In this document: piece by piece, positions 3,881 through 63,793 of the stretch | Numbering within the stretch: the first letter of the stretch is position 1 | Layout of the letters: every line of letters begins with the position of its first letter | Origin: a virus | Reading direction: 5' to 3' (one strand) | IMG/VR virus record: IMGVR_UViG_3300042562_001235 | Location: 1 to 64,000 of that record | Length of the DNA stretch: 64,000 nt | The notes under the pieces: generated by a model | Seen by the model: only the letters and a program-made list of their open reading frames with translations | Told to the model about the DNA's origin: nothing | The model's database searches: none | Translations under genes and position numbers: made by a program

Positions 3881-5545
3881 ATGAGAGTATTAGGATTTTC
3901 GGTAGGACACGATAAAGGTGCGGTTATCATAGAAAATGGAAAAGTTGTGGTGGGTATCACCCAAGAAAGATTATCTAGGATAAAACACGATGGTGCATAT
4001 CAAGGGGGATTAATTCCTTTTGAATCCATAAACTATTGTTTAAATTATTTGAGTATTACTCATAGGGATATAGACTTATTTGTTTATAGTACCACTGAAA
4101 TAACCGATGATGTTGATTCTCAGTTTTTCAACAAATATATCGATTTAAAAAGGAAAAAACTTAAATTTTTACCTCACCATTTGGCCCACGCATATTCAAC
4201 GTTTTTTAGTTCAGGTTTCGAAGAATCAGCAATAATTGTTGCGGACGCATCCGGAAGTATTTTAAGCTACAAAAACAAATTACATGAATGGTATGATGTT
4301 GATAGAACTGATTTAGACCCTGAAGAAGATTGGGCCGAAGGAATTTCATTATTTCATTTTACAAAAAACGGATATAATGAAGTTTATAAAAAATGGATAA
4401 AATATCCTGTTCCTATTGACACCAATGAAGGTGTTTCTGTTGGAACTGTTTATTCAACAGGTTCATTACAATTAATCTACGAACCAAATGAAAACACTTG
4501 GCCAGCAGGTAAATTAATGGGGTTGGCGTCATATGCTGACAAAACAGTTGTTGATGAAGCTCCACAATATGTAAAAGAATTAGACGACGATATATTCATA
4601 CCAAATAATACAATCTACCCAAAAGTAACTTGGAAATCTGATTTTTTCTCAAGAGCATGTGTTGCGGGAATTTACCAAAGGGAACAAGAAAGGTCTTCTT
4701 TAATTTTAGCTAAAATCGCAAAAAATTTAACAAAATCTTCGAATGTATGTGTTGCTGGTGGGTCATTTTTAAATTGTAATTCAAATGAAGTTATTCTAAA
4801 TTCAGGATTATATGACAATTCTTATTTTTTAGCTCCGAGTGATGATAGTGGGATTCCATTAGGATGCGCTTGGTATGCATATCAACAACTTACGGATATT
4901 GTTTCATCTGAACCAATGTCCCCATATTTTGGTAAAACATATTCAAAACAAGAAATTATCACGGCAATTAATAACCACCCTGATTTAAATATTATTGAGT
5001 ATGTTGATGAAAGTGAATTAATTAAAGATGTAACCCATTGGTTAACCCAAAATAGAGTGATTGGTTGGTTTCAGGGAGGGTCAGAAATTGGTCCAAGGGC
5101 ATTAGGTAATCGTTCAATATTAGCATCACCAATTCAAAAATGGATGTCAGGTCATATTAATGGGGATATCAAACATAGAGAATGGTATCGTCCCTTTGCA
5201 CCGGCAGTTTTATTTGAACATCAATCTGAAGTCTTCGAATCAGATGTTTATTCTCCTCATATGTTGGTGACCACGTCAGTTAAAGAAGAATGGAGAGATA
5301 AAATACCTGCAGTTACTCATATTGATTATTCTGCAAGACATCAATCGGTTACCAAAGAGAATAACCCAAAATTTTATTCACTAATCAATTCGTTTTATGA
5401 TGAAACCGGTGTTCCTGTTTTACTTAACACAAGTTTTAATGGTCCACACGAACCAATTGTTGAAACTCCTGAAGAGGCAATTAAAACATTCATTTCAAAC
5501 AAACTTGACATATTAGTAATTGATAATTTTATTATAAGTAGATAA
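3881..5545 (+). CDS. carbamoyltransferase (NodU/CmcH/NovN family), paralogue 1
   Basis: N-terminal domain motif LPHHLAHAYSTFFSSGF. C-terminal Carbam_trans_C motifs GWFQGGSEIGPRALGNRSILASP, RPFAPAVL, PAVTHIDYSARHQSV and LLNTSFNGPHEPIVETPEEAI. Confidence 0.85.
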   Translation: MRVLGFSVGHDKGAVIIENGKVVVGITQERLSRIKHDGAYQGGLIPFESINYCLNYLSITHRDIDLFVYSTTEITDDVDSQFFNKYIDLKRKKLKFLPHHLAHAYSTFFSSGFEESAIIVADASGSILSYKNKLHEWYDVDRTDLDPEEDWAEGISLFHFTKNGYNEVYKKWIKYPVPIDTNEGVSVGTVYSTGSLQLIYEPNENTWPAGKLMGLASYADKTVVDEAPQYVKELDDDIFIPNNTIYPKVTWKSDFFSRACVAGIYQREQERSSLILAKIAKNLTKSSNVCVAGGSFLNCNSNEVILNSGLYDNSYFLAPSDDSGIPLGCAWYAYQQLTDIVSSEPMSPYFGKTYSKQEIITAINNHPDLNIIEYVDESELIKDVTHWLTQNRVIGWFQGGSEIGPRALGNRSILASPIQKWMSGHINGDIKHREWYRPFAPAVLFEHQSEVFESDVYSPHMLVTTSVKEEWRDKIPAVTHIDYSARHQSVTKENNPKFYSLINSFYDETGVPVLLNTSFNGPHEPIVETPEEAIKTFISNKLDILVIDNFIISR

Positions 5546-5548
5546 TTT

Positions 5549-7138
5549 ATGAGTTCAATTTATGGATTCTTTACCGGGTCACATAGTCCATCTATTGCAT
5601 TAATTAGAGACGGTAAAATAACATTTTGTATTGAGGAAGAGAGACTAACCCGAATAAAATCAGGTGATAATTACGATATTAATTGTGAATTATCATGTAT
5701 TGAGGCGGAAAAATATACAGGTCTAAAAATAACAGATGCCGATTACCGAATCTTTGCAAATCCAACACCGGACGAATTTGCCCGTAAAATTACCAACAAT
5801 AATTATGAAAAAGTTAGTCACCATACCGCACACGCATATGGTGCCTACTACACCAGTGGAATGAAAGGTAAATCAATTACTATCACATACGATGGTGGAG
5901 GGGAAAGTACCGTAATGAAAGTTTATCTGTGTGATAATGGAAAAATGACTTTAATCCAAAGTCATCCATTGGCGTCATTTGGAAGTATTTCTCATGTTTG
6001 GGGATTCAGTACATCCTCAATGAGAGGATATGACGAACATGGTGAGGGAATATGGAAAATGTGTAAAGATGAAGGTAAATTAATGGGTATGGGTCCAAAT
6101 GGTCATTACGATGAGACAATTTATAATATGTTGTCCACCGTAATTAATTATAAGGATTTTAGATTTTACCCATCCGGGTCATCAAGTAAAACTATGTTTT
6201 TAGGTGACATGATGAAATTCAATGGATATTTCGATACTCAAGAAAAAATGGAAATCTATTCATTTAATTTACAAAAACGAACAGAAGACCTATTCCTAAA
6301 ATTTATTGACGACTTACATAATTTATATCCTGAATATAAGCAATTATGCTTATCCGGAGGACTATTTGCCAATGTTAAATTAAATCAAAAACTCAACGAA
6401 TTAGAATGGGTTGACGAAATTTATATTTACCCACCAATGGGTGATGAAGGGTTGTCATTAGGAGCTTGTATCTATAAAGCAGTAAAATTGGGTGAGATTA
6501 CAGAACCAATTGAACTAACTAATGTTTATTTTGGAAAGTCATACAATAATGATGAAATACAGGAAATCTCAAAAGATTATAGTTTTAAGAGAGAACCATA
6601 TAATCCGAAAGATATCGCAAATTATATCAATCAAGGAGGAATCGTTGGATGGTTTCAAAATGGTTCCGAATTTGGTCCAAGGTCTTTAGGGGCTCGAAGT
6701 ATTTTAGTTAGACCAACTGAAATCTCAACACATAGACTACTAAATCAAAGATTAAATCGATATGATACAATGCCATTTGCCCCAATTATATTAGAAGAAT
6801 CCTTTGACAATATTTTTACACCATCAAAGTCAAAATACACATCTGAGTTTATGACATTATGTTACAATACAAAAGATGAGTGGATTGATAAGATACCTGC
6901 AGTTATACAAAAGTCAGATAAAACGGCCAGACCACAAATAGTTAAAAGGTCTAAAACACCTAAATTTTGGGAAATATTAAATGAATATTATATGTTATCA
7001 GGAATACCATTATTATTGAACACTTCATTTAATTCTCACAATCAACCAATCATTGAAAACCCTGAGCAAGCATTTGAGTCATTAAAACTTGGGGTTATCG
7101 ATAAACTAATAATTGAAGATTATGTTTATTTCTCTTAA
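5549..7138 (+). CDS. carbamoyltransferase (NodU/CmcH family), paralogue 2
   Basis: HHTAHAYGAYYTSG, GWFQNGSEFGPRSLGARSILVRP, MPFAPIIL and LLNTSFNSHNQPIIENPEQAFE. Shares the same domain order as the upstream gene but has diverged from it. Confidence 0.85.
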   Translation: MSSIYGFFTGSHSPSIALIRDGKITFCIEEERLTRIKSGDNYDINCELSCIEAEKYTGLKITDADYRIFANPTPDEFARKITNNNYEKVSHHTAHAYGAYYTSGMKGKSITITYDGGGESTVMKVYLCDNGKMTLIQSHPLASFGSISHVWGFSTSSMRGYDEHGEGIWKMCKDEGKLMGMGPNGHYDETIYNMLSTVINYKDFRFYPSGSSSKTMFLGDMMKFNGYFDTQEKMEIYSFNLQKRTEDLFLKFIDDLHNLYPEYKQLCLSGGLFANVKLNQKLNELEWVDEIYIYPPMGDEGLSLGACIYKAVKLGEITEPIELTNVYFGKSYNNDEIQEISKDYSFKREPYNPKDIANYINQGGIVGWFQNGSEFGPRSLGARSILVRPTEISTHRLLNQRLNRYDTMPFAPIILEESFDNIFTPSKSKYTSEFMTLCYNTKDEWIDKIPAVIQKSDKTARPQIVKRSKTPKFWEILNEYYMLSGIPLLLNTSFNSHNQPIIENPEQAFESLKLGVIDKLIIEDYVYFS

Positions 7139-24116: not shown

Positions 24117-25298
24117 ATGGGATTTATGAATAAATTAGACAAAACATACACAGACCTACTTCAAGATATTCTTGATAATGGTGTGGAGAAAAAAGACAGA
24201 ACCGGGACGGGAACAATCTCAGTATTCGGAAGACAAATCAGACATAAAATGTCAGAAGGATTCCCATTACTTACGACCAAAAAGATGCCGTGGAAATCAA
24301 TCGTCACAGAACTTCTTTGGTTCCTTCAAGGGAATACAAACATCAAATGGTTGGTCGATAATGGATGTAACATTTGGAATGGTGATGCTTATAAAAATTA
24401 TCTACTATTAATGATTGGTAATGAACCTGAAAAGATTTTATCAATGGATGATTTTATTAATAAGATAAAGAACGATGATAAGTTTGCCAAGAAGTGGGGT
24501 GATTTAGGTCCAATTTACGGTAAGCAATGGAGGAAATGGGCACCTGAATCGGGTGAGATTAATAAAGGTGGTGTAGACCAAATCGCAAACCTAATCAATG
24601 ACCTTAAATCAAATCCAGACTCAAGACGATTAATGGTTAATGCTTGGAATGTTGGAGAATTAGACCAAATGGTTCTTCCACCTTGTCATTATGGATTTCA
24701 AGTTTATACAAGAGAGTTGAGTTGGGAAGAGAGAGTTCAATGGGTTTTGAAACATACTGATGTTGAATTAGAGAATCTTTATATTGTTGAAGAAATTGCT
24801 AAAAACTCAACTCCAAAAAGAGCAATCTCTTTAATGTGGAATCAAAGAAGTTGCGATTTATTTTTGGGAATTCCATTCAACATTGCTTCTTATGGATTGT
24901 TATTAGAGATTATAGCAAAAGAAGTAAATATGATTCCGGATGAGTTGATTGGGAATCTTGGTGATGTTCATTTGTATTCAAATCATATTGAACAAGCCAA
25001 AGAACAGATTGGAAGAGAATTAACTCACGAAGAAAGAACCGAATTGTTAAAACAGGCAATGGGTGAAGAAAATTATAATAAAGCGGTTGATGAATTAATG
25101 CCGTTTGGTGGTGGATTAACTGAATATTATGATTCATATAAAATTCCTTATACAACAAGAGAACCTTATAAGTTACCGAGATTAAAATTCTCACCTTGTC
25201 CAATAACCGGAATTGATATGGAGTATCAATCAATTGCCCAATTCCAAATTGAGAACTATGAATCACATCCGGTAATTAAAGCACCTTTGAGTAATTAA
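24117..25298 (+). CDS. thyA: thymidylate synthase homologue (ThyA fold; dUMP methylase or hydroxymethylase) with two insertions
   Basis: Near-collinear with E. coli ThyA: DRTGTGT, LLWFLQG, DLGPIYGKQWR, PDSRRLMVNAWNVGELD, PPCH (catalytic Cys), QRSCDLFLGIPFNIASY, GDVHLYSNH, HPVIKAP. The extra roughly 130 aa lie in two inserts. Confidence 0.85.
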   Translation: MGFMNKLDKTYTDLLQDILDNGVEKKDRTGTGTISVFGRQIRHKMSEGFPLLTTKKMPWKSIVTELLWFLQGNTNIKWLVDNGCNIWNGDAYKNYLLLMIGNEPEKILSMDDFINKIKNDDKFAKKWGDLGPIYGKQWRKWAPESGEINKGGVDQIANLINDLKSNPDSRRLMVNAWNVGELDQMVLPPCHYGFQVYTRELSWEERVQWVLKHTDVELENLYIVEEIAKNSTPKRAISLMWNQRSCDLFLGIPFNIASYGLLLEIIAKEVNMIPDELIGNLGDVHLYSNHIEQAKEQIGRELTHEERTELLKQAMGEENYNKAVDELMPFGGGLTEYYDSYKIPYTTREPYKLPRLKFSPCPITGIDMEYQSIAQFQIENYESHPVIKAPLSN

Positions 25299-30434: not shown

Positions 30435-32318
30435 ATGAAAAAACTTTTTATGGCGCTGTCATTCCTTATAATGACTTCACTGGGTTATTCCCAAATTTGT
30501 CCGACACCGACAACTACCGGAGTTTTTGTTACATTAGACGCAACCTATCAATTAGCACCGGCATCTGCTGGTAATACTGAAGTAGGTTTATGTTTTTTTA
30601 ACAATACTACGGAGTTAGTTACGGCTGCTCAGTTTCGAGTGTTTTATGATACCGCAGCATTCACATCAGTGTCTTCTGTTGTATCGTCAAATACATCGTT
30701 TCCTCAATATATTCAATTTCAGGATAGTCCTGCTAATGGATATGTTACGATTACTCTAACTTACACAGGTAATGATTCCAATTTTGAATTATCAGATGGG
30801 TCATTTGTAAAATTAAATTTAGTACACTCAGCAAATTTTGCGAGTTTGTCGTCTGTTCAACCCATGACATTTAGTGGTGTTCAAACATTCCCACAAACTG
30901 CAACAAAACAAAATGGTTCTGACTATACTTTAAATTTACAAAACTTTGGTGGAGCGTTTTTACCTCAACTATTTTCGTTTAGTGGTACATTCACTAACGT
31001 AACAGGAACGGGGTCAAAATTAATTCCGGTTATTTTAGAGAAAAAATTAATGACATCTTCAACTTGGGTTCAAGCGTCAACAACACAAACAAATAACTCT
31101 GGTGTTTTCACATTTACGGATGTACCATTAGATGTTACAAGTTATGACGTTCGTATTAGAGTAGATGGTGAATCACTAACAATTGCGAATATCATTTCTA
31201 CATCTGACTCACAAAAAATCAACAGATTTGTTTTAGGTCAAGATACTCCAACAGGATTTGATTTCTATTCATCTGATGTTAATGGTGACAACAACATATC
31301 AATTTCTGATGTGTATGGTGTGTTTGGTAGAGTATCAGGAAGATTTAGTTCTTGGCCTAATACGGTTAAAGATGTTAAATTCTTCTCAGATTCAGAATAC
31401 ACTTCTATTAATGGAGCAACATCATCTTTACAATCTACAATTCCGGGTGTAACAAATCTTGTTTACAATATTTTACCGGGTACAACAACAGTTACTTTCT
31501 ATGTCTTAGTTAAAGGAGACGCTAATGGTACTGGTTTTAATATGGCTCGTATGACCCCAATTGAAATCGTAAACCCATTAAACGCACCATCAAATATTAT
31601 TGATGTTACAACAACTTATGACAACCCAACATTACAAACAATCGAATTAAACTATCCAAGTTTAACGGTAAATGAAAATAGTAGAGTTGAGGTTCCTGTT
31701 CTTGTAAAAACAAATGGAATTCAATTAGGTTCTTTACAACTAGCACTAAATTACAATAGTAATCTATTAGATTTTACAGGTGTTAGAGCGGAGAATAAAG
31801 TTAGTGGATGGATAACTTATGTTAACACAAATGATAATATTGTTGAGTGGGGTGGTTATGACCCAACAAAAAATACGAAATTATTAAACGACAACGAATT
31901 AGCATTCACGCTACAATTCATAGCGAAAGAAATTCAAAGTCAATGGGGTGTAAGTCCTTTATATGTTACAAAAAAATTCTCAGGAAATTCAATTGCTAAA
32001 GATTTGAAAATAATACCAACAAACGGAATTATTCAAATCATGAGAGTTATGAAACCAACCGATTTAGAATATATGGTGACATATCCAAATCCAACTGATA
32101 ATGAAATCACAGTCAAATTTACAGTAGAAAAAGAAGGTAATGTTTGGTTGTCTTTATATGATTTGGGTGGTAGAGAAATTAAAACAATTGTTCGTACTGA
32201 TTTAAATTCAGGAGAACACAGATATAGTACAAATGTTGGTCACCTTCCTTCAGGGACTTACATCGTTACTCTTAAAAAAGGTACGGGAATAGAATCTAAT
32301 AAGATTATCCGTAAATAA
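30435..32318 (+). CDS. secreted protein with a T9SS (Por) C-terminal sorting domain
   Basis: Signal peptide. The C-terminus LSLYDLGGREIKTIVRTDLNSGEHRYSTNVGHLPSGTYIVTLKKGTGIESNKIIRK fits the T9SS type-A CTD. Internal DVNGDNNISISDVYGVFGRVSGRFSSW motif is shared with 35350..36324. Confidence 0.6.
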   Translation: MKKLFMALSFLIMTSLGYSQICPTPTTTGVFVTLDATYQLAPASAGNTEVGLCFFNNTTELVTAAQFRVFYDTAAFTSVSSVVSSNTSFPQYIQFQDSPANGYVTITLTYTGNDSNFELSDGSFVKLNLVHSANFASLSSVQPMTFSGVQTFPQTATKQNGSDYTLNLQNFGGAFLPQLFSFSGTFTNVTGTGSKLIPVILEKKLMTSSTWVQASTTQTNNSGVFTFTDVPLDVTSYDVRIRVDGESLTIANIISTSDSQKINRFVLGQDTPTGFDFYSSDVNGDNNISISDVYGVFGRVSGRFSSWPNTVKDVKFFSDSEYTSINGATSSLQSTIPGVTNLVYNILPGTTTVTFYVLVKGDANGTGFNMARMTPIEIVNPLNAPSNIIDVTTTYDNPTLQTIELNYPSLTVNENSRVEVPVLVKTNGIQLGSLQLALNYNSNLLDFTGVRAENKVSGWITYVNTNDNIVEWGGYDPTKNTKLLNDNELAFTLQFIAKEIQSQWGVSPLYVTKKFSGNSIAKDLKIIPTNGIIQIMRVMKPTDLEYMVTYPNPTDNEITVKFTVEKEGNVWLSLYDLGGREIKTIVRTDLNSGEHRYSTNVGHLPSGTYIVTLKKGTGIESNKIIRK

Positions 32319-55092: not shown

Positions 55093-56004
55093 TTATATTT
55101 GTGATTCGGCAACTACCACAACATTTGATAATTCCCAACCTGCATTACATAATTTGTCATTATAACAATCTCCGGTAAACCATGGACTATTATAAGGACC
55201 TTTAGGTGAGTACCCTTCCCAATATGATGGAGTTATCCACCATCCAACTGACATACTTGATTTTAATGAAGACATATTAATAGTAGTTCCATCGGCACCA
55301 CCATTATTTAACACATCGTATATTACAGTACTTTTCCCATTTTGAGAAACGGTGATTGTCATATTAGTATAATCGGAGTTAAAATCAATCTCCATATCAA
55401 ATGGAATAGTTACGTCAATAATATCAACTAAACTATGAGTTCCGTTAGATGAGTTATTAGATAAATTACTTTGAGTGTAACAATCATCATCCATTAATGC
55501 ATCAGTATATGAATATTCAAATCTTTGTTGATTGTTTAAATGAATCGTTTGTTGGAATATTCTATTTCCGTTGGTTTCTAAAAAGTCAATCTCATTACAA
55601 TACGGGGCACCATTATTACCAGCGTCACAATAGTTAGTTCCTTTAGGTTGAGTTGAACTATTCACCATGTAAAACGACGCGTTTAACCAATTGTTTTTTT
55701 GAATTTCAGTTGGTGCCATTCCTGATAGGTCAATTGTTGCGGTAATTCTGGAGATATTTTTAAACCCATGAGTTGAAACAACTCTACCGGCATTAAAGGT
55801 AACAGTTGAATTTTCAATTATTGGAGTTGCGTTACACCAATCACTGGTCCAATCTTCTTCAAATGTAACATTGTAAGTTGTTAATGATGATAATGACGAT
55901 TTTTTATTACAACCAAATAGTTTTTTAATTTGTTCGTAAATTTTAATAATTTTTTCCATTTTTTTTAGTTTATAATAAGTAGTTTCTTTAATAAAAAAAC
56001 CCAC
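55093..56004 (-). CDS. hypothetical Asn/Thr-rich protein
   Basis: 303-aa ORF immediately downstream of the aaRS-like gene. Confidence 0.5.
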   Translation of the reverse strand: MGFFIKETTYYKLKKMEKIIKIYEQIKKLFGCNKKSSLSSLTTYNVTFEEDWTSDWCNATPIIENSTVTFNAGRVVSTHGFKNISRITATIDLSGMAPTEIQKNNWLNASFYMVNSSTQPKGTNYCDAGNNGAPYCNEIDFLETNGNRIFQQTIHLNNQQRFEYSYTDALMDDDCYTQSNLSNNSSNGTHSLVDIIDVTIPFDMEIDFNSDYTNMTITVSQNGKSTVIYDVLNNGGADGTTINMSSLKSSMSVGWWITPSYWEGYSPKGPYNSPWFTGDCYNDKLCNAGWELSNVVVVAESQI

Positions 56005-58504: not shown

Positions 58505-59560
58505 TTAAGTTTCCTTAACCCCAAATTTAATTGTATCCTCAAGATAATTATAAAACGATTTTGTTCTATCTTCTTTATCGTGATAATAATTACCATAACC
58601 TATTAGTTCTCCACTTTGGTCAGGTAGTGGTTGGGTTTCTTTAATACCGGTTTCAATAATAGTCTCAACATTACCATCAGTAATGTTTTGTCTCAAAATA
58701 GTTTTCTTAATGCCATTTTGTATAGTGTCTTCAACCATTACCTGTGGCATATACTCGGTGTTGAGAGTTTCCTTAACACCATTATCAATAACATCATCAA
58801 TCATTTTTGTGTAACTACTTGAGTTATTTTCATCCATCCATTCAATTGTTGACATAATGTCACCATCTTTACCAAGTGTTTTTGTTTCTTTCACACCATT
58901 TTTAATAACACCCTCAACCCAACTTTTATTTTCGTTATCATTAAATTGTGTCAACTTCACCCCATTTTGAATGGTGTCTTCAATAACTAAAGAACCATCT
59001 ATTCGTAATGATTTATTAGTTTCTTTCACCCCATTTTCAATTATATTTTTAACTGTGAGTTGTTTATGTCCTTGATTAAACATAGTTTCCTTCACCCCAT
59101 CTTGAATAACATCTTCAACAAGGTTTTTAACCCCTTGTTCATAACTGAGGGGGTGTTTTTCATCAAAGTTGAGGGTCTCTTTCACGCCATTTTCAATGGT
59201 GTCTTCAACGCGTTCAATGATTAGGTTATTGGCCAAATTGGTCTGTTTAACCCCCATTTCAATGATTCCTTCAACTTCACCTTCTGTAATATTTTTTTCC
59301 AAAATGGTGTCTTTAACCACATTTATTATATTATCTTCCACCCATTGGGTGATGTAATGTTGATTTTCAACCACATCCATTGAGGCATAATTAAATATAT
59401 TGTTAAAAAAGTTATAGTTATACCACAGAGTTTTGCTCTCGGTTAATTCAATCACCCATTGTTTGGACTCCGTGAATATTAACCAAGTGGAACCATTATG
59501 GGTATAGGTGTCCACACCTTTAACAGATTCATTAATTAACGTATCAACTATTTTTTTCAT
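58505..59560 (-). CDS. repeat protein with at least 9 copies of a roughly 22-aa unit centred on (I/V)xNG(V/I)KET
   Basis: IENGVKETL, IQDGVKETM, IENGVKETN, IQNGVKLTQ, IKNGVKETK, IDNGVKETL, IQNGIKKTI, IETGIKETQ, IKFGVKET. Start trimmed to MKKIVDTL. Confidence 0.55.
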   Translation of the reverse strand: MKKIVDTLINESVKGVDTYTHNGSTWLIFTESKQWVIELTESKTLWYNYNFFNNIFNYASMDVVENQHYITQWVEDNIINVVKDTILEKNITEGEVEGIIEMGVKQTNLANNLIIERVEDTIENGVKETLNFDEKHPLSYEQGVKNLVEDVIQDGVKETMFNQGHKQLTVKNIIENGVKETNKSLRIDGSLVIEDTIQNGVKLTQFNDNENKSWVEGVIKNGVKETKTLGKDGDIMSTIEWMDENNSSSYTKMIDDVIDNGVKETLNTEYMPQVMVEDTIQNGIKKTILRQNITDGNVETIIETGIKETQPLPDQSGELIGYGNYYHDKEDRTKSFYNYLEDTIKFGVKET

Positions 59561-60008
59561 CAACTTTCTTTTTAAATAATTCGAAAAACTTATCTTGGTT
59601 TGTTTTCTCAGGTGGAACAATTAACGATTCAACTTTAAATGAAATAAAATCCATTTCACTACCATAGGTCATTTTGAAATAATCATTAAACAATCCTTCA
59701 TAATGGTCTTTACCACCTTTTGGTACATCGTTCTCATTAAAAAATAAATTAATTGCAACCAAAAAATTAAAAGACGGTTCAAAAGTCATTGGGTCATAAA
59801 CACTTCTACTTTTATAACCAATGGTGACAACCTCCCTAATCTCGGGACACAATTTTAAAACAACCGTATTGAATCTTTCAGGTATATCAATATCGCGTAC
59901 ATACTCATATGTTGTTTCGTGTTCATTCTCTTCTCCCATAATATCTAATTTTTCACAAAGATAAGAAATTATTTTATTAGAAAATAGTAGGCATAAAAAA
60001 ACCCTCAC
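59544..60008 (-). CDS. hypothetical protein
   Basis: 154-aa ORF. Confidence 0.45.
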   Translation of the reverse strand: MRVFLCLLFSNKIISYLCEKLDIMGEENEHETTYEYVRDIDIPERFNTVVLKLCPEIREVVTIGYKSRSVYDPMTFEPSFNFLVAINLFFNENDVPKGGKDHYEGLFNDYFKMTYGSEMDFISFKVESLIVPPEKTNQDKFFELFKKKVDEKNS

Positions 60009-60419: not shown

Positions 60420-60758
60420 TTATTCAATTTCGGACAAATAATCCATAATATCCGATGTGATATCCAATTGTCGATAATCAGATTGACTACTCGTATCATC
60501 ATTATTAGCATAATTAATCATTTCGGCAACAGATGAAAGTAATTCAGCGGTCTTTTCTCTCCCAATAATTGAAACTGATGTCATAACAAATTTTCCTAAT
60601 TGTGAGGACATTTTATCAAAATACCCAAAATTTTTTCCCCTATTATCCTCATAATTGAAGAATTCTTTTAATTTTTTAGGATTTGATTTTTCTTCTATTA
60701 TCACTTTTTTAACCAAACGACTTAAATCATCTTCGGTTAGTCTTACTATTTTTTTCAT
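60420..60758 (-). CDS. TES-leader family protein (MKKIVRLTEDDLSRLVKKVIIEE)
   Basis: Conserved N-terminal peptide; TGATATATTTATAATAAAAA promoter motif. Confidence 0.55.
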   Translation of the reverse strand: MKKIVRLTEDDLSRLVKKVIIEEKSNPKKLKEFFNYEDNRGKNFGYFDKMSSQLGKFVMTSVSIIGREKTAELLSSVAEMINYANNDDTSSQSDYRQLDITSDIMDYLSEIE

Positions 60759-60791
60759 AAATTATTTGTTTTTATTATAAATATATCACAA

Positions 60792-61220
60792 TTAACCAAT
60801 TTGAGTTGCGTTCGTTCCATATTTTTGATTAAACATATTCAAAAATGATTTACCCCAAACATCAACACCACCAAACATATCGATAAGTCGGTCAATAAGT
60901 TCTTCTTCCAACCATAGGGTATCAAATCGGGATTCGGTGATATCCGGAACATCATGACAAGGTTCAGGTAATTCTCCCATAAGTTCCTCAGGGTAATCCC
61001 CACCATCATCATAGTTCTCACCATCAACCAACTTAAATAAATAATCATCGTGTTCTCTACCGGGAAGAACAAAACCAATTGCATAGATATCACAACATAC
61101 ACCCCACCCACAATCAAAGTCGGCCCAAGTATAATCCATATCCTCAAACCCATCAAAAGATAGATTTAGAAATTTCGAAATAACATTTGTTAATTTAGAT
61201 TCGTCAATAATATATTCCAT
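60792..61220 (-). CDS. TES-leader family protein (MEYIIDESKLTNVISKFLN), acidic
   Basis: Trimmed to Met8; compare MKYIITESKLNQTVKNYLN (46176..46538). Confidence 0.5.
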   Translation of the reverse strand: MEYIIDESKLTNVISKFLNLSFDGFEDMDYTWADFDCGWGVCCDIYAIGFVLPGREHDDYLFKLVDGENYDDGGDYPEELMGELPEPCHDVPDITESRFDTLWLEEELIDRLIDMFGGVDVWGKSFLNMFNQKYGTNATQIG

Positions 61221-61242
61221 AATGATAAATAGTTGTACCAAT

Positions 61243-61275
61243 AAAAAACCCCACTACAATGAGCGGGGTTATTTA
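61243..61275 (-). terminator. rho-independent terminator (CCCCACTACAATGAGCGGGG)
   Basis: Imperfect GC hairpin plus A6, followed by an (ATT)7 microsatellite. Confidence 0.5.
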
Positions 61276-61295
61276 TTATTATTATTATTATTATT
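61272..61295. repeat. (ATT)7 microsatellite
   Basis: attattattattattattatt immediately 3' of the stop of gene 61295..61672. Confidence 0.8.
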
Positions 61296-61672
61296 TATGC
61301 TCTTACATTTCTTGAATTTTCATAAGTGTAATATAGTCCTTCACCCATTTGTTCAACACATTCATACCCTTGTTCTTCAAAATTATTATCGGTTCCGATT
61401 AGATTAACAAACGCTAAAGTTTCAATCCCACAAATGTCAATACCCGAAAAATCGGCATACTCACAATCAAGAATTGCAACAAATCTAATGTCATCTGATA
61501 AATTATTTAGATGTTTACTAACCACATCAGCACTTTTATTACGTAACATAAGTTGACGACGAGTAGTATCTTTTTCTTCATAACCCATAGTCATTTCATC
61601 TTCTTGTTCTTTAATCACTCTTCTAACTAATCTAGTTAAATCTGATTCAGTTAGTCTTATTATTTTTTTCAT
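61295..61672 (-). CDS. TES-leader family protein (MKKIIRLTESDLTRLVRRVIKEQE)
   Basis: Conserved N-terminal peptide; GAAATATTTATAATAAAAATG promoter motif. Confidence 0.55.
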   Translation of the reverse strand: MKKIIRLTESDLTRLVRRVIKEQEDEMTMGYEEKDTTRRQLMLRNKSADVVSKHLNNLSDDIRFVAILDCEYADFSGIDICGIETLAFVNLIGTDNNFEEQGYECVEQMGEGLYYTYENSRNVRA

Positions 61673-61733
61673 ACTAATATCATTTTTATTATAAATATTT
61701 CAATACCCAAAAAAGGGGATGGGATTTAAATCA

Positions 61734-62096
61734 TTATTTAATTTCAATATTCACTAATTCAATTTTACCGGAGCTTGGGTTATTAAAAATAAATTCACAC
61801 TTTCGAGATTGATTATCAATCTTACCCACAGTTCCTTTTGTCCCTGGTTTGATTCTGGAATCATTAGAGTTTGATTGAGTTATAACACTATTCTCATAAT
61901 TACCATATCTCATATTTTCACCAACTTTAATTATGACAAAATCATTAGTTGGTTTTCCTCGTTCACCTGTTTTTGTTGATTTTAGAAAACCCTTAATTGT
62001 TTTAGGTGAACTCTGTTCGGTAAGATTGGATTCATTAACTATCCTTTTAACAATTCTCATTAAATCAGATTCAGTTAATCTTATTACTTTGTTCAT
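61734..62096 (-). CDS. TES-leader family protein (MNKVIRLTESDLMRIVKRIVNES)
   Basis: First 40 nt nearly identical to 62622..63011; TGATATATTTATAATAAAATG promoter motif. Confidence 0.55.
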   Translation of the reverse strand: MNKVIRLTESDLMRIVKRIVNESNLTEQSSPKTIKGFLKSTKTGERGKPTNDFVIIKVGENMRYGNYENSVITQSNSNDSRIKPGTKGTVGKIDNQSRKCEFIFNNPSSGKIELVNIEIK

Positions 62097-62128
62097 TTTG
62101 ATATCATTTTATTATAAATATATCAATT

Positions 62129-62176
62129 ACCAAAAAAAGGGCTGGGATTACACCGAACGAAGTGAGTCCGGTTCGG
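62129..62176. repeat. intergenic repeat element, copy A (CCAAAAAAAGGGCTGGGATTACACCGAACGAAGTGAGTCCGGTTCGG)
   Basis: Shares a GGGCTGGGATT box and a CGAACGAAGTGAG(T/A)CCGG box with the copies at 63048 and 63319. Contains a CCGAAC...GTTCGG hairpin. Confidence 0.6.
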
Positions 62177-62185
62177 AAGAGATAT

Positions 62186-62216
62186 AAAAAAACCCACCTT
62201 TATGGGGTGGGGTTAT
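62186..62216 (-). terminator. rho-independent terminator (CCCACCTTTATGGGGTGGG)
   Basis: Hairpin plus A7 on the + strand. Confidence 0.6.
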
Positions 62217-62219
62217 ATC

Positions 62220-62597
62220 TTACATACCTACTTGTTGTTTGTATCTTTTAAGTAATTGGAAAATATCACTTCTTGTTTTTCCATTATAATATCTACAATA
62301 AGTTTGCACATATTCAGGGGTTTTATTATAATCCTCAAAACCTCCACCAACATTATCACAATTAATATCCATAAAGTTATTAACGATTTCTTCCAACATA
62401 GGAATAACATTGTTTATAAGATTACTTTTTTGTGCATCTTCCTCAGATGGTCTATTCATAGTTTGAGGTTCATCTGATGATGTATCCATAGAAGATGTAC
62501 CCATGTCATCCATATTAAATTGTTCAAATAACATTCTTCTCTCCAATCTACTATTGGATTCTTGTATGTGTCTAATTTTACTATAACTTCTATTCAT
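62220..62597 (-). CDS. NRSYSK-leader protein (MNRSYSKIRHIQESNSRLERRMLFEQ)
   Basis: N-terminal 25 aa conserved with 60034..60399. Confidence 0.5.
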   Translation of the reverse strand: MNRSYSKIRHIQESNSRLERRMLFEQFNMDDMGTSSMDTSSDEPQTMNRPSEEDAQKSNLINNVIPMLEEIVNNFMDINCDNVGGGFEDYNKTPEYVQTYCRYYNGKTRSDIFQLLKRYKQQVGM

Positions 62598-62634
62598 AAT
62601 TTTATTATCTCTTTAATTTTATTATCTCTTTAAT
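62598..62634. repeat. tandem direct repeat TTT(T)ATTATCTCTTTAAT x2
   Basis: 18/17-bp unit duplicated head-to-tail between genes 62622..63011 and 62220..62597. Confidence 0.75.
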
Positions 62635-63011
62635 GATAAGGCATATTGAACAACTTTATTTGCAACAACTTTAGGGTCGTTTGGACCAAGTAGGAATTCT
62701 TTCATACCTTTATTATTTCCAACCCACACATAATAAATTCCTTTCATTTTATCTAATAGGACATTAACACCGTTACTGTGTCCACCATAACTTAAAGAAT
62801 TTTCTGTGCCAATTTGTTTTAACTTTTTATCGTATTCGTCTTTAAAACCCGATTTCAATAATTTTGGTTTAACAATTTTATTATAGTGTTCAAGTTCGTC
62901 AGTTTGTGGGTCACCAGGTCCTTCTTTAAACCCACCTACCTCTTGTTCATTAATAACTCGTCTAACGATACGAATTAAATCAGATTCAGTTAATCTTATT
63001 ACTTTTTTCAT
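62622..63011 (-). CDS. TES-leader family protein (MKKVIRLTESDLIRIVRRVINEQE)
   Basis: Conserved N-terminal peptide; TGATATATTTATTAATAAAGG promoter motif. Confidence 0.55.
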   Translation of the reverse strand: MKKVIRLTESDLIRIVRRVINEQEVGGFKEGPGDPQTDELEHYNKIVKPKLLKSGFKDEYDKKLKQIGTENSLSYGGHSNGVNVLLDKMKGIYYVWVGNNKGMKEFLLGPNDPKVVANKVVQYALSLKR

Positions 63012-63047
63012 ATTTTATTTGCCTTTATTAATAAATATATCAATATA

Positions 63048-63125
63048 GAAAAAAAGGGGCTGGGGATTCCCCCGAACGAAGTGAGACCGGACGACGCGGT
63101 ATACGAACTACCCGTCTCTTCGTTT
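63048..63125. repeat. intergenic repeat element, copy B (extended hairpin variant)
   Basis: GAAAAAAAGGGGCTGGGGATTCCCCCGAACGAAGTGAGACCGG...CCCGTCTCTTCGTTT, with long imperfect inverted repeats. Confidence 0.55.
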
Positions 63126-63278
63126 ACCACTTCTATAATTATAGAAATTCAAAACTATCATCAAAACAAAACAAACATTTGTCATTGTGTATAACATTCT
63201 ACCATTATAAACATAAGATAAAATATTCCCCCCTATAAGAAGAATTAACCCCAAAACCATAAACACCTTATTTACCAT
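63108..63278 (-). CDS. small two-TM membrane protein
   Basis: ORF 63108..63323 uses a non-ATG start; trimmed to MVNKVFMVLGLILLIGG, preceded by a TATCTTTG -7 box 14 nt upstream. Confidence 0.4.
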   Translation of the reverse strand: MVNKVFMVLGLILLIGGNILSYVYNGRMLYTMTNVCFVLMIVLNFYNYRSGKRRDG

Positions 63279-63292
63279 AACTAATTTTTTTA

Positions 63293-63300
63293 CAAAGATA
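63293..63300 (-). promoter_or_regulatory. -7 promoter box TATCTTTG (minus strand)
   Basis: Reverse complement of CAAAGATA; followed by TAAAAAAATTAGTT and ATG. Confidence 0.4.
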
Positions 63301-63318
63301 ATAAATGATTTCCACATT

Positions 63319-63385
63319 ACCAAAAAAAGGGCTGGGATTCCCTCGAACGAAGTGAGTCCGGACGGTCGTTCACGAATATCCCCGC
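63319..63385. repeat. intergenic repeat element, copy C
   Basis: CCAAAAAAAGGGCTGGGATTCCCTCGAACGAAGTGAGTCCGGACGGTCGTTC, with a GAACGA...TCGTTC hairpin. Confidence 0.6.
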
Positions 63386-63793
63386 CTATGACATAGAAAC
63401 AACCATAACCGGAACATCCAAATACTCACACAAAGATTTTATATGACTAATCTTCATATCAGTTGTTGTTTTTGTGGTAAGATAAAAGTTACGCATCTTA
63501 ACAACCTGATTGGCCCCCTTATAAGAATCCGGGAACGAATCATAACTATCCCTTACATAATTCTTCAATACCTTAGAGAATACACCATAACCAACAACAC
63601 CCTCAAAATGACGAATCACATTTAAATAATTCTCATTTGTTGTAGGTTTAGTAAAAAGAGTTCCCCCAACATTAAAACCATATCTCTTGGTCTGTTCCCG
63701 TTGAGGATATTTCTCATTATACAAATTATTAATCATCTCAATTAATTCTCCCTTGTACTCACTATCCATGAGTAATTCTAATTTTTCTTCCAT
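63386..63793 (-). CDS. hypothetical protein
   Basis: 135-aa ORF; a TATTATCTTTATAC box lies upstream. Confidence 0.5.
   Translation of the reverse strand: MEEKLELLMDSEYKGELIEMINNLYNEKYPQREQTKRYGFNVGGTLFTKPTTNENYLNVIRHFEGVVGYGVFSKVLKNYVRDSYDSFPDSYKGANQVVKMRNFYLTTKTTTDMKISHIKSLCEYLDVPVMVVSMS

Follow-up and report, generated by a model that had tools for sequence, protein, structure and literature searches.

Repeat copies and genes at the locus

The DNA analyzed here, hereafter the window, is a stretch of 64,000 nt corresponding to positions 1-64,000 of the virus record IMGVR_UViG_3300042562_001235. We studied an intergenic repeat that occurs in this window in four copies, all located within 61.7-63.4 kb among open reading frames (ORFs) of 56-135 aa. 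An initial annotation had reported three copies and a partial copy, with an A7 run and two shared boxes; their coordinates, the run (A6-7) and both boxes all match the sequence. The 18-nt box CGAACGAAGTGAGNCCGG has exactly three matches in a scan of the window, on the plus strand at 62154, 63073 and 63344, compared to 0.03 per window expected from shuffled sequences. Outside these three copies no match was found in the 64 kb, with up to three mismatches tolerated. The A-run followed by GGGCTGGGATT is present in the same three copies and in a stump at 61709-61726 (0.15 expected), and an independent repeat search of the window finds the same families (D7, D8). The repeat family is real, and it is larger than what is visible from the window alone.

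According to the ORF list, all real genes in the 58-64 kb region are on the minus strand. Since the flanking genes are all on this strand, the element has to be read as the reverse complement, and the A7 run becomes a T/U-run at its 3' end. The initial annotation had read it on the non-coding strand and had missed its link to a promoter downstream: the repeat unit runs on, via a spacer of ~11 nt, into a promoter-like motif. On the coding strand the order is as follows: stop codon, GGCGGGG-(A/T)TATTCGTATACCGCGTCGT-CCGG(A/T)CTCACTTCGTTCG-NNN-GAATCCCAGCCC-T7, ~11 nt, TATTTAT(A/T)AT, ATG. The features of the locus are:

61295-63793, minus strand: six co-oriented small genes with the elements between them (63793-63386, 63278-63108, 63011-62622, 62597-62220, 62096-61734, 61672-61295)
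63322-63386, minus strand: copy C, full-length (sequence, box match, fold; nhmmer score 67.6 against the family profile)
63386-63380, minus strand: copy C, 5' arm GGCGGGG; its first G also ends the stop codon TAG of the upstream gene (63793-63386)
63379-63362, minus strand: copy C, 5' half ATATTCGTGAACGACCGT, with a variant middle
63361-63357, minus strand: copy C, CCGGA
63356-63344, minus strand: copy C, 13-nt box CTCACTTCGTTCG
63343-63340, minus strand: copy C, linker AGGG
63339-63329, minus strand: copy C, 3' arm AATCCCAGCCC
63328-63322, minus strand: copy C, T7
63049-63118, minus strand: copy B, with core and 5' half TAGTTCGTATACCGCGTCGT intact and T7 at 63055-63049
62193-62211, minus strand: hairpin CCCACCCCATAAAGGTGGG of an ordinary GC-rich terminator, with T7 after it, immediately 5' of copy A (terminator scan, repeat family D3)
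62132-62185, minus strand: copy A, 5'-truncated just beyond CCGG, 5' of the box; it retains CCGAACCGGA-CTCACTTCGTTCG-GTGT-AATCCCAGCCC-T7
61709-61727, minus strand: stump copy, consisting of the 3' arm AAATCCCATCCCC and T6 only, 6 nt past the stop of gene 62096-61734

None of the six array genes has a match in Pfam. Copy B has a degraded 5' arm, GAGACGGG, that coincides in part with the end of the 56-aa ORF 63278-63108, namely its final codons and TAG stop (63110-63108). This arrangement is found identically in the relatives L007, L136 and L168 (L-numbers designate the related viral or metagenome contig stretches compared with the window). Copy A directly follows an ordinary terminator, and this class, "terminator + truncated core", is also present in L007-2055, L128, L116, L130 and L151. 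Stumps comparable to that of the window (AATCCCANCCC, T-run and promoter) are common and occur in L121, L183, L189, L005 and L057.

The initial annotation had separated the repeat from the ordinary terminators, and these indeed form a family of their own, D3. Its members, AAAAAA-CCC(C)ACC...GGTGGG(G)-TTTTTT at 55989, 57934, 59990, 61239, 62183 and 63928, are flanked by an A-run and a T-run and look bidirectional; several stand exactly ~11 nt upstream of a TATTTAT motif. About eight TTA/ATT units (61271-61296) directly follow the terminator at 61247-61270 and overlap the stop of gene 61672-61295.

Distribution of the family in viral and metagenome contigs

A scan of viral contigs with the box gave 26 loci, of which 14 (~30-32% GC) have the whole context in common. 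The coding-strand consensus is: stop codon - GG(C/T)GGGG - (A/T)TATTCGTATAC - CGCGTCGT (variable, 4-11 nt) - CCGG(A/T) - CTCACTTCGTTCG - NNN - (G/T/A)AATCCC(C)ANCCC(C) - T6-9. The initial annotation had described different sequences pairing back in each copy. The relatives show instead a single conserved 5' half, GG(C/T)GGGG(A/T)TATTCGTATACCGCGTCGT, so that the extensions are one and the same 5' half, intact in copy C, degraded in copy B and truncated in copy A, rather than independent inventions.

A metagenome scan anchored on CTCACTTCGTTCGNNGNAATCC returned 86 contig stretches, mostly freshwater and some marine by their contig names. The profile search over all low-GC loci gave 193 hits, corresponding to at least 157 distinct copies on ~100 contigs. 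With so many copies in related phage and metagenome contigs, the repeats are not gene-end remnants lacking further copies, the outcome by which the initial annotation had proposed to refute its reading. Copies can be dense: L007 has five in 5.4 kb, and elsewhere there are up to four per 2.6-kb contig. A host-genome origin was rejected, as a pattern of 24 specified bases has no match in the bacterial and archaeal genomes of GTDB (representatives, one per species, ~185,000). No near DNA match to the window was found among deposited phages. Rfam gave no match at gathering thresholds for the whole window and seven related or unrelated loci, and only noise at E up to 10 for 61.6-63.5 kb; the family thus has no Rfam counterpart.

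The view of the repeat as non-coding and intergenic was also borne out: indels of 1-2 nt in the C-runs or before CTCAC disrupt every reading frame. Coding potential was rejected on either strand because changes in C-run length and 2-nt insertions shift the frames, and the plus-strand ORFs reading KKGWD..ERSESG across the element are antisense artefacts. A tRNA or tRNA-derived origin was rejected as well, ARAGORN and the Rfam tRNA model finding only the eight tRNAs at 23-946. So was a likeness to the tRNA T-arm, since by eye there is no match to the 3' halves of these eight tRNAs.

Matches to the 18-mer in L002/4/12/15/22/23/25, L009, L011, L017/18 and the giant-virus L006, where it is coding, have other contexts and orientations and were treated as unrelated. 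By a rough estimate, their number is about that expected by chance for a 17-base pattern in such a collection. In L002, L004, L012, L015, L022, L023 and L025 (~36-40% GC), the 13-mer is found in the opposite orientation (CGAACGAAGTGAG) in the loop of a CCGGGC/GCCCGG hairpin. This hairpin directly follows a terminator in an unrelated phage group, a curious context for what we judged to be a chance match.

Conservation of the core and erosion of the 5' side

Only the 3' core and the T-run are obligatory across the copies of the family. The 5' half (TTCGTATAC) occurs 56 times with the 3' core versus five spurious or variant occurrences without it, and the profile hits frequently have the core without the 5' half. 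The conservation of the box was judged on 18 distinct family copies collected with an anchor outside it, AATCCCAGCCCTTTT. They are distributed as follows: in 14 copies the box CTCACTTCGTTCG is exact, in one it has a single mismatch, and in three, all from L057, the interior is different. Over all copies the 13-nt box is exact in ~87%, and the neighbouring linker and spacer vary freely. A minor subfamily bears CTCCCTTCGGTCG. The family is a 5'-erosion series anchored at its promoter-proximal side.

The three L057 copies (2914-2960, 4600-4650, 5963-6010) have the same 3' arm, T-run and promoter, with another conserved interior, TATCGTTATTCGGCA(T/C)CAAG(T/G)TT, and may represent a sister family using the same 3' arm. 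In L024 (6504-6568, also in L026), a unit of ~17 nt (CACTTCGTCCGGTCACT) is present in tandem triplicate within the box region, which indicates slippage inside the element. Downstream of subfamily-2 copies (L129 ~3000, L176 ~290, L155 ~3040), the T-run gives way to another GC-rich element, GGCCGACGGTCCC(C)GACCGACTTCGTCGG. Within it, CCGAC-CGACTTC-GTCGG is a perfect hairpin with a loop of 7 nt (..ACTTC) similar to that of the box, TCACTTC.

Predicted hairpin formation

Folding of full copies on the coding strand (copy C and others) gives a long imperfect hairpin ending at the U-run. We classified 147 distinct copies, the arm being called paired when the duplex between the 3' arm and an upstream G-rich arm has an energy of at most -10 kcal/mol. 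In 38 cases (26%), the 3' arm pairs with a G-rich 5' arm, with a T5-9 run adjoining. In 24 cases (17%), the copy is located behind an ordinary terminator. A single copy belongs to both classes, which are almost mutually exclusive. The 5' arms that pair with this 3' arm are of at least three unrelated kinds, namely GGCGGGG..., GGTTGGGG with an ACGAGA hairpin, and TTGGGATT; this suggests some selection for closure of the stem. The inner hairpin often has mismatches or insertions of 2 nt. Mere complementarity of the 3' arm to upstream sequence was discarded as an indicator: it does not discriminate from a reversed-arm control, the arm being nearly symmetric.

Association of the copies with promoter motifs

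At least 12 minus-strand genes of the window have the motif TATTTAT(A/T)A(T/A) on their coding strand, 2-25 nt upstream of the ATG. Each of the four copies is followed by this motif or by another promoter-like sequence:

61688-61697, minus strand: promoter-like motif TATTTATAAT following the stump; distance to the T-run upstream 11 nt, to the ATG downstream (61672) 15 nt
62111-62120, minus strand: promoter-like motif TATTTATAAT following copy A; distance to the T-run upstream 11 nt, to the ATG downstream (62096) 14 nt
63028-63037, minus strand: promoter-like motif TATTTATTAA following copy B; distance to the T-run upstream 11 nt, to the ATG downstream (63011) 16 nt
63293-63324, minus strand: Bacteroidota-type promoter after copy C, consisting of TTTG (63324-63321), 20 nt, TATCTTTG (63300-63293) and 14 nt before the ATG at 63278

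In copy C the TTTG box is made of the last Ts of the T-run of the element and a G, and ~25 other copies likewise precede TTTG-N19-20-TA(tc)TTTG. The sigma-A promoter consensus of Bacteroidota is TTTG/TAnnTTTG. In addition, a window protein of 627 aa (30435-32318, plus strand) has a cohesin-like domain and a C-terminal sorting domain of the type IX secretion system (T9SS; Por_Secre_tail). Because of this sorting domain and of the promoters after the copies, the host of the phage is probably a member of Bacteroidota. The same protein points to a phage product that would be exported via the T9SS of the host.

In 90 of 101 copies, 11-13 nt separate the end of the T-run from (T)ATTTAT; the spacer varies in sequence, and the ATG follows (T)ATTTAT at 4-5 nt or at 14-20 nt. 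The same spacing to the promoter motif, 10-13 nt, is observed for 46 ordinary terminators that do not have the core. A GC-rich stem half, a T-tract, ~11 nt and TATTTAT thus make up the junction that terminators and promoters generally form in these phages, and the element is one way to fill the upstream half of such a junction. Across 132 loci, a same-strand ORF ends 40-130 nt upstream of the T-run in 118, and a same-strand ORF starts at most 80 nt downstream in 117. Readings of the core as a sigma-70 or extracytoplasmic function (ECF) promoter gave no consistent fit by scan and inspection. The reading of the promoter motif as an opposite-strand T4-late TATAAATA was rejected on account of its fixed orientation and short distance to the ATG on the coding strand.

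Copies at sites of genome rearrangement

L007 and the window share blocks at 75-93% identity in another order, with copies at the block ends; the homologues of the window array genes are likewise in a different order in L007. At one place, where the window has copy C alone, two copies in L007 enclose a gene of 183 aa. The upstream flank of copy C is that of the first L007 copy and its downstream flank is that of the second, a pattern which would be the expected product of recombination between two copies, or of the reverse insertion. We also compared filled and empty sites, i.e. homologous junctions with and without the element. Two junctions of the window are empty:

61231-61241, minus strand: empty site; the homologous terminator/promoter junction of L147 holds an element insert of ~68 nt
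60786-60792, minus strand: empty site; the homologous stop-codon/promoter junction of L169, L125, L130 and L143 holds an insert of ~65 nt

With these two, there are four independent filled/empty pairs. The 5' boundary differs each time, the 3' boundary is the promoter motif, and no target-site duplication is visible in the four pairs. The variable 5' ends, the absence of duplication and the 3' end at the promoter fit a cassette or linker, not a transposon. When the flanks of 132 loci were compared in pairs, 109 pairs had the upstream flank alone in common, 134 the downstream flank alone and 11 both flanks. The initial annotation had thought of a regulatory element or a mobile mini-element, which was the right direction: copies are located at terminator/promoter junctions and at the breakpoints of cassette shuffling.

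In three of the four window cases the repeat unit continues into a shared N-terminal coding module (families D2, D4, D6, D8). A swap of N-terminal modules is directly visible in L007 3918-4286, a chimera of two window proteins, with a MKKVIRLTESDL head joined to the body of window gene 62597-62220, whose own head is MNRSYSKIRHIQESN. More generally, many of the small proteins downstream of the element (window 60420-63011, L007 1279-4680, ~117 loci) share start modules and have otherwise unrelated bodies. These modules are MKK(V/I)IRLTESDL..., MNRS(Y/F)SKIRHIQESN..., MEYII(S/D)E... and MKYIITE..., with a common hydrophobic-x-(T/S/Q)-E in the first 8-13 residues. They resemble, by analogy only, the (L/I)xE heads of T4 internal proteins, which serve for prohead-protease or capsid targeting. 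Nearby, gene 58505-59620 (minus strand) has ~8 internal repeats spaced by 66-135 nt, each ending in a (N/D)G(V/I)KET-like sequence (families D1, D5); its homologues in L003, L007, L020, L024 and L067 differ in the repeat region.

Interpretation of the element

T4-like phages have promoter-early and promoter-middle stem-loops (PeSL/PmSL), in which a stem-loop terminator, a promoter and a start codon make up ~100 conserved bp (Arbiol et al. 2010, PMC2839356; Comeau et al. 2014, PMC4122927). They are clustered in hyperplastic regions and adjoin indels, and experiments showed mini-circles as well as promoter and terminator activity (PMC2839356, PMC4122927). With moderate confidence, we regard the present element as belonging to a composite terminator/promoter linker cassette of the PeSL type. 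It would form the upstream part of this cassette, which would insulate, drive and help to shuffle small accessory genes. The sequences establish the family itself, the position and orientation of its copies, their coupling to promoter motifs, the filled and empty sites and the shuffled flanks. The cassettes of ~65 nt between the small genes would belong to a hyperplastic small-gene region in a large phage with a Bacteroidota host.

In its full version the element starts at the stop codon and can form a long imperfect GC-rich hairpin, closed by GGCGGGG/CCCAGCC and followed by a U-run, i.e. the form of an intrinsic terminator. Its T-run either lies at a fixed ~11 nt upstream of the promoter motif of the next gene or supplies the TTTG -33 box of a host-type promoter. 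Because a terminator form and a promoter are present in one unit of ~100 bp, this unit may both insulate and drive each small gene: full copies probably end upstream transcription, and all copies are tied to a promoter motif downstream. The cassettes could also serve as homology patches where genes get deleted, inserted or swapped, since near-identical sequence, extending from the 45-nt 3' core through the T-run and promoter and often over the first ~25 codons, recurs at many junctions and in many related phages. We infer that recombination is the source of the rearrangements; the copies wear away from their 5' side.

Such linkers would extend the PeSL idea past the T4-like phages of Proteobacteria and cyanobacteria to unrelated, uncultured large aquatic phages. 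The hosts of this phage group use a different promoter grammar, and portable linkers would allow accessory genes to be swapped without disturbing their neighbours. The family, abundant and easily recognised, may serve as a marker of hyperplastic regions and cassette boundaries in metagenomic phage genomes, and it offers candidate terminator and promoter parts for Bacteroidota genetics.

Several results weigh against this interpretation. As many as 84 of the 147 classified copies (57%) lack both a paired 5' arm and an upstream ordinary terminator, so termination cannot be what conserves the core. Covariation was tested on an alignment of the 58 copies bearing the 5' half, for four helices: the outer stem, its AUUC/GGAAU extension, the CCG/CGG hairpin and the CGGAC/GUUCG hairpin. 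In this alignment 77-82% of the cells pair, and 0-1 pairs are changed on both sides, without excess over shuffled controls; the power of the test is low, as the copies are very similar and two of the collection anchors fixed part of the core. The fold energies of the window copies on the coding strand are no better than those of shuffled sequences (z from -0.1 to -1.3). The lack of covariation and of an energy excess places the conservation at the level of the sequence, not of the structure. The counts of shared flanks stand without a matched control from element-free junctions. PeSLs are simple polyG/polyC hairpins of variable sequence; the stem-loop part of the present element measures ~65 nt and has a conserved 5' half as well as a 13-nt box that hardly varies. 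The linker role leaves the near-invariance of this box unaccounted for, since a pure homology patch does not predict site-specific conservation such as 14 exact boxes out of 18.

This last point is what a sequence-specific signal read by a protein would explain. The core (box CTCACTTCGTTCG, C-rich arm and T-run) would then define a set of co-regulated small genes, as an operator or upstream activating site, or as a hairpin-independent pause, termination or antitermination signal on the RNA or the non-template strand. Such a signal is compatible with the linker role. It would agree with a conservation in sequence rather than structure, with a box near-invariant next to a linker and spacer that are not, and with a core kept in 57% of the copies without a pairing partner. 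The 5' half is essentially never found without the core, which is often found without the 5' half. Furthermore, the orientation is constant, the end of the box is 32-37 nt away from ATTTAT in 96 of 101 copies, and the stumps retain exactly the arm, the T-run and the promoter. Nevertheless, the tightest spacing is the one between the T-run end and the promoter, which is common to ordinary terminators lacking the core; the promoter therefore does not need the core, and many window promoters have the same motif without it. The core-promoter distance varies by ~5 nt, and by a further ~10 nt for the TTTG/TAnnTTTG class. No candidate binding protein and no regulator-like, integrase, transposase or homing-endonuclease domain was found in the 61 ORFs of the window, which is part of the genome. 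All in all, a protein-read signal is a possibility that we hold to be unlikely. The narrower proposal of the box, C-rich arm and T-tract as a dedicated recognition signal for a phage-encoded protein, beyond shared ancestry, is in our opinion just as doubtful. The reader could be a hairpin-independent terminator factor, pause factor or anti-terminator acting on a phage RNA polymerase, or else a recombinase or nuclease mobilising cassettes of promoter and gene. If true, this would amount to an integron-like or regulon-like cassette system common to many large freshwater and marine Bacteroidota phages. In any case the conserved 13-nt box provides a handle for finding the reader of the junction, be it a polymerase, a regulator or a recombination protein.

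The remaining explanations have less in their favour. The initial annotation had suggested a small structured RNA with variable hairpins. A discrete transcript, e.g. a small RNA (sRNA) derived from a 3' untranslated region (UTR) that stops at a terminator of its own and presents the box as a single-stranded seed or a loop for protein binding, would have the shape of the full copies, which run from the stop codon to a hairpin and U-run as 3'-UTR sRNAs do. The wobbles favour the coding strand, one CGGAC/GUUCG pair being G-U in 44 copies and A-U in 9, and the outer stem of L013 and L016 has U-G pairs. This suggestion is nevertheless improbable: in addition to the missing covariation, energy excess and Rfam match, most copies are 5'-truncated without a closing stem, more than half lack a partner for the 3' arm, and the inner hairpin commonly carries 2-nt insertions and U-U mismatches. 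No complementary target was found in the window with up to three mismatches tolerated. A mobile DNA element, either a miniature transposon resembling a miniature inverted-repeat transposable element (MITE) or a recombinase site moving gene cassettes like an integron attC, appears slightly more improbable still. It would explain the presence/absence polymorphism at otherwise homologous junctions, the short inverted terminal arms with a recurrent G-A mismatch, the arrays of small ORFs each followed by an imperfect palindrome and the 5'-truncation series. Against it, the 5' boundary changes from one filled/empty pair to the next, the 3' boundary is the promoter and not the end of an element, no target-site duplication is visible, none of the 61 ORFs of the window, itself part of the genome, encodes an integrase, transposase or homing endonuclease, and the ~185,000 bacterial and archaeal genomes have no copy. 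A MITE or Correia-like transposon was rejected for its variable ends and lack of target-site duplication, and an attC-like site for want of a recombinase in the window and because the sequence is conserved, not the structure. Finally, the copies could be functionless leftovers of tandem gene duplication, carried along with paralogous N-terminal modules, as the window repeat is contiguous with a duplicated promoter and MKK(V/I)IRLTESDL module (D2, D4, D8). The distribution of the copies largely refutes this idea, which we consider very improbable: the same core stands before many unrelated genes on more than 100 contigs of varied sample origin, the gene after copy C is an unrelated membrane ORF, and the core is near-invariant where spacers and flanks fall to 75-90% identity or to no similarity.

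Other genes of the window

The window starts with eight tRNA genes (Ile, Asn, Phe, Tyr, Val, Cys, Gln, Ser) at 23-946 on the minus strand. Two spacers of this cluster (95-172 and 325-467, ~75-145 nt) are richer in GC than the genome and have no Rfam match. Two tandem Nol-like carbamoyltransferase genes (554 and 529 aa) are located at 3881-7138 on the plus strand; their only neighbours at the protein level are distant carbamoyltransferases of marine cyanophages and an uncultured marine virus, with ~31-33% identity. The thymidylate synthase ORF (24117-25298, plus strand) encodes 393 aa and covers ~280 positions of the PHROG profile, which suggests an insertion of ~100 aa (intein, extra domain or interrupted gene).

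Comparison with known systems

The linker idea, that of "boundary/linker sequences" in modular phage evolution, is attributed to Susskind and Botstein. Like PeSLs, the present element belongs to an intergenic unit of ~100 bp in which a GC-rich stem-loop, in this family a candidate terminator, is directly upstream of a (here putative) promoter and a start codon. Many copies are clustered among small ORFan genes, here without Pfam match, in a plastic region; "half" or degraded copies occur; and copies are found at indels, replacements and displaced genes between close relatives. The differences are as follows. The host is predicted to be a member of Bacteroidota and no T4 core gene (Straboviridae) was recognised among the scanned window proteins, which is a criterion of lineage and not of mechanism. 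The sigma-70 promoters of PeSLs are replaced by the putative promoters TATTTAT(A/T)AT or TTTG-N19-20-TAnnTTTG. There is no Shine-Dalgarno sequence, and the closed stem is absent from most copies.

A second parallel is provided by the genes for the internal proteins (IP) of T-even phages, which, as reported in Comeau et al., have conserved 5' regions (Repoila et al. 1994, via PMC4122927). As far as this account goes, the likeness is in a homology made of an upstream regulatory region and an N-terminal module, joined to unrelated protein bodies. Compared with the IP genes as described there, the linker has a far more elaborate conserved non-coding part, and the proteins downstream of it are not known to be targeted to the capsid.

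Imperfect palindromes at gene 3' ends, with many truncated copies, are also a feature of the repetitive extragenic palindromes (REP) and bacterial interspersed mosaic elements (BIME) and of the Correia elements of Neisseria. These are chromosomal and co-transcribed, with terminator and/or promoter activity. Correia elements are bounded by defined terminal inverted repeats of 26 bp and duplicate a TA target, and REPs are associated with RAYT transposases. In contrast, the present family has variable ends, no duplication and no bacterial copies. Short sequence-specific signals near a U/T-run that act without a hairpin are represented by the T7 class II terminators, ops and the boxA of nut sites. 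Although the element has no sequence similarity to these signals, it would be comparable to them, by analogy only, in having a short conserved single-stranded sequence near a T-run.

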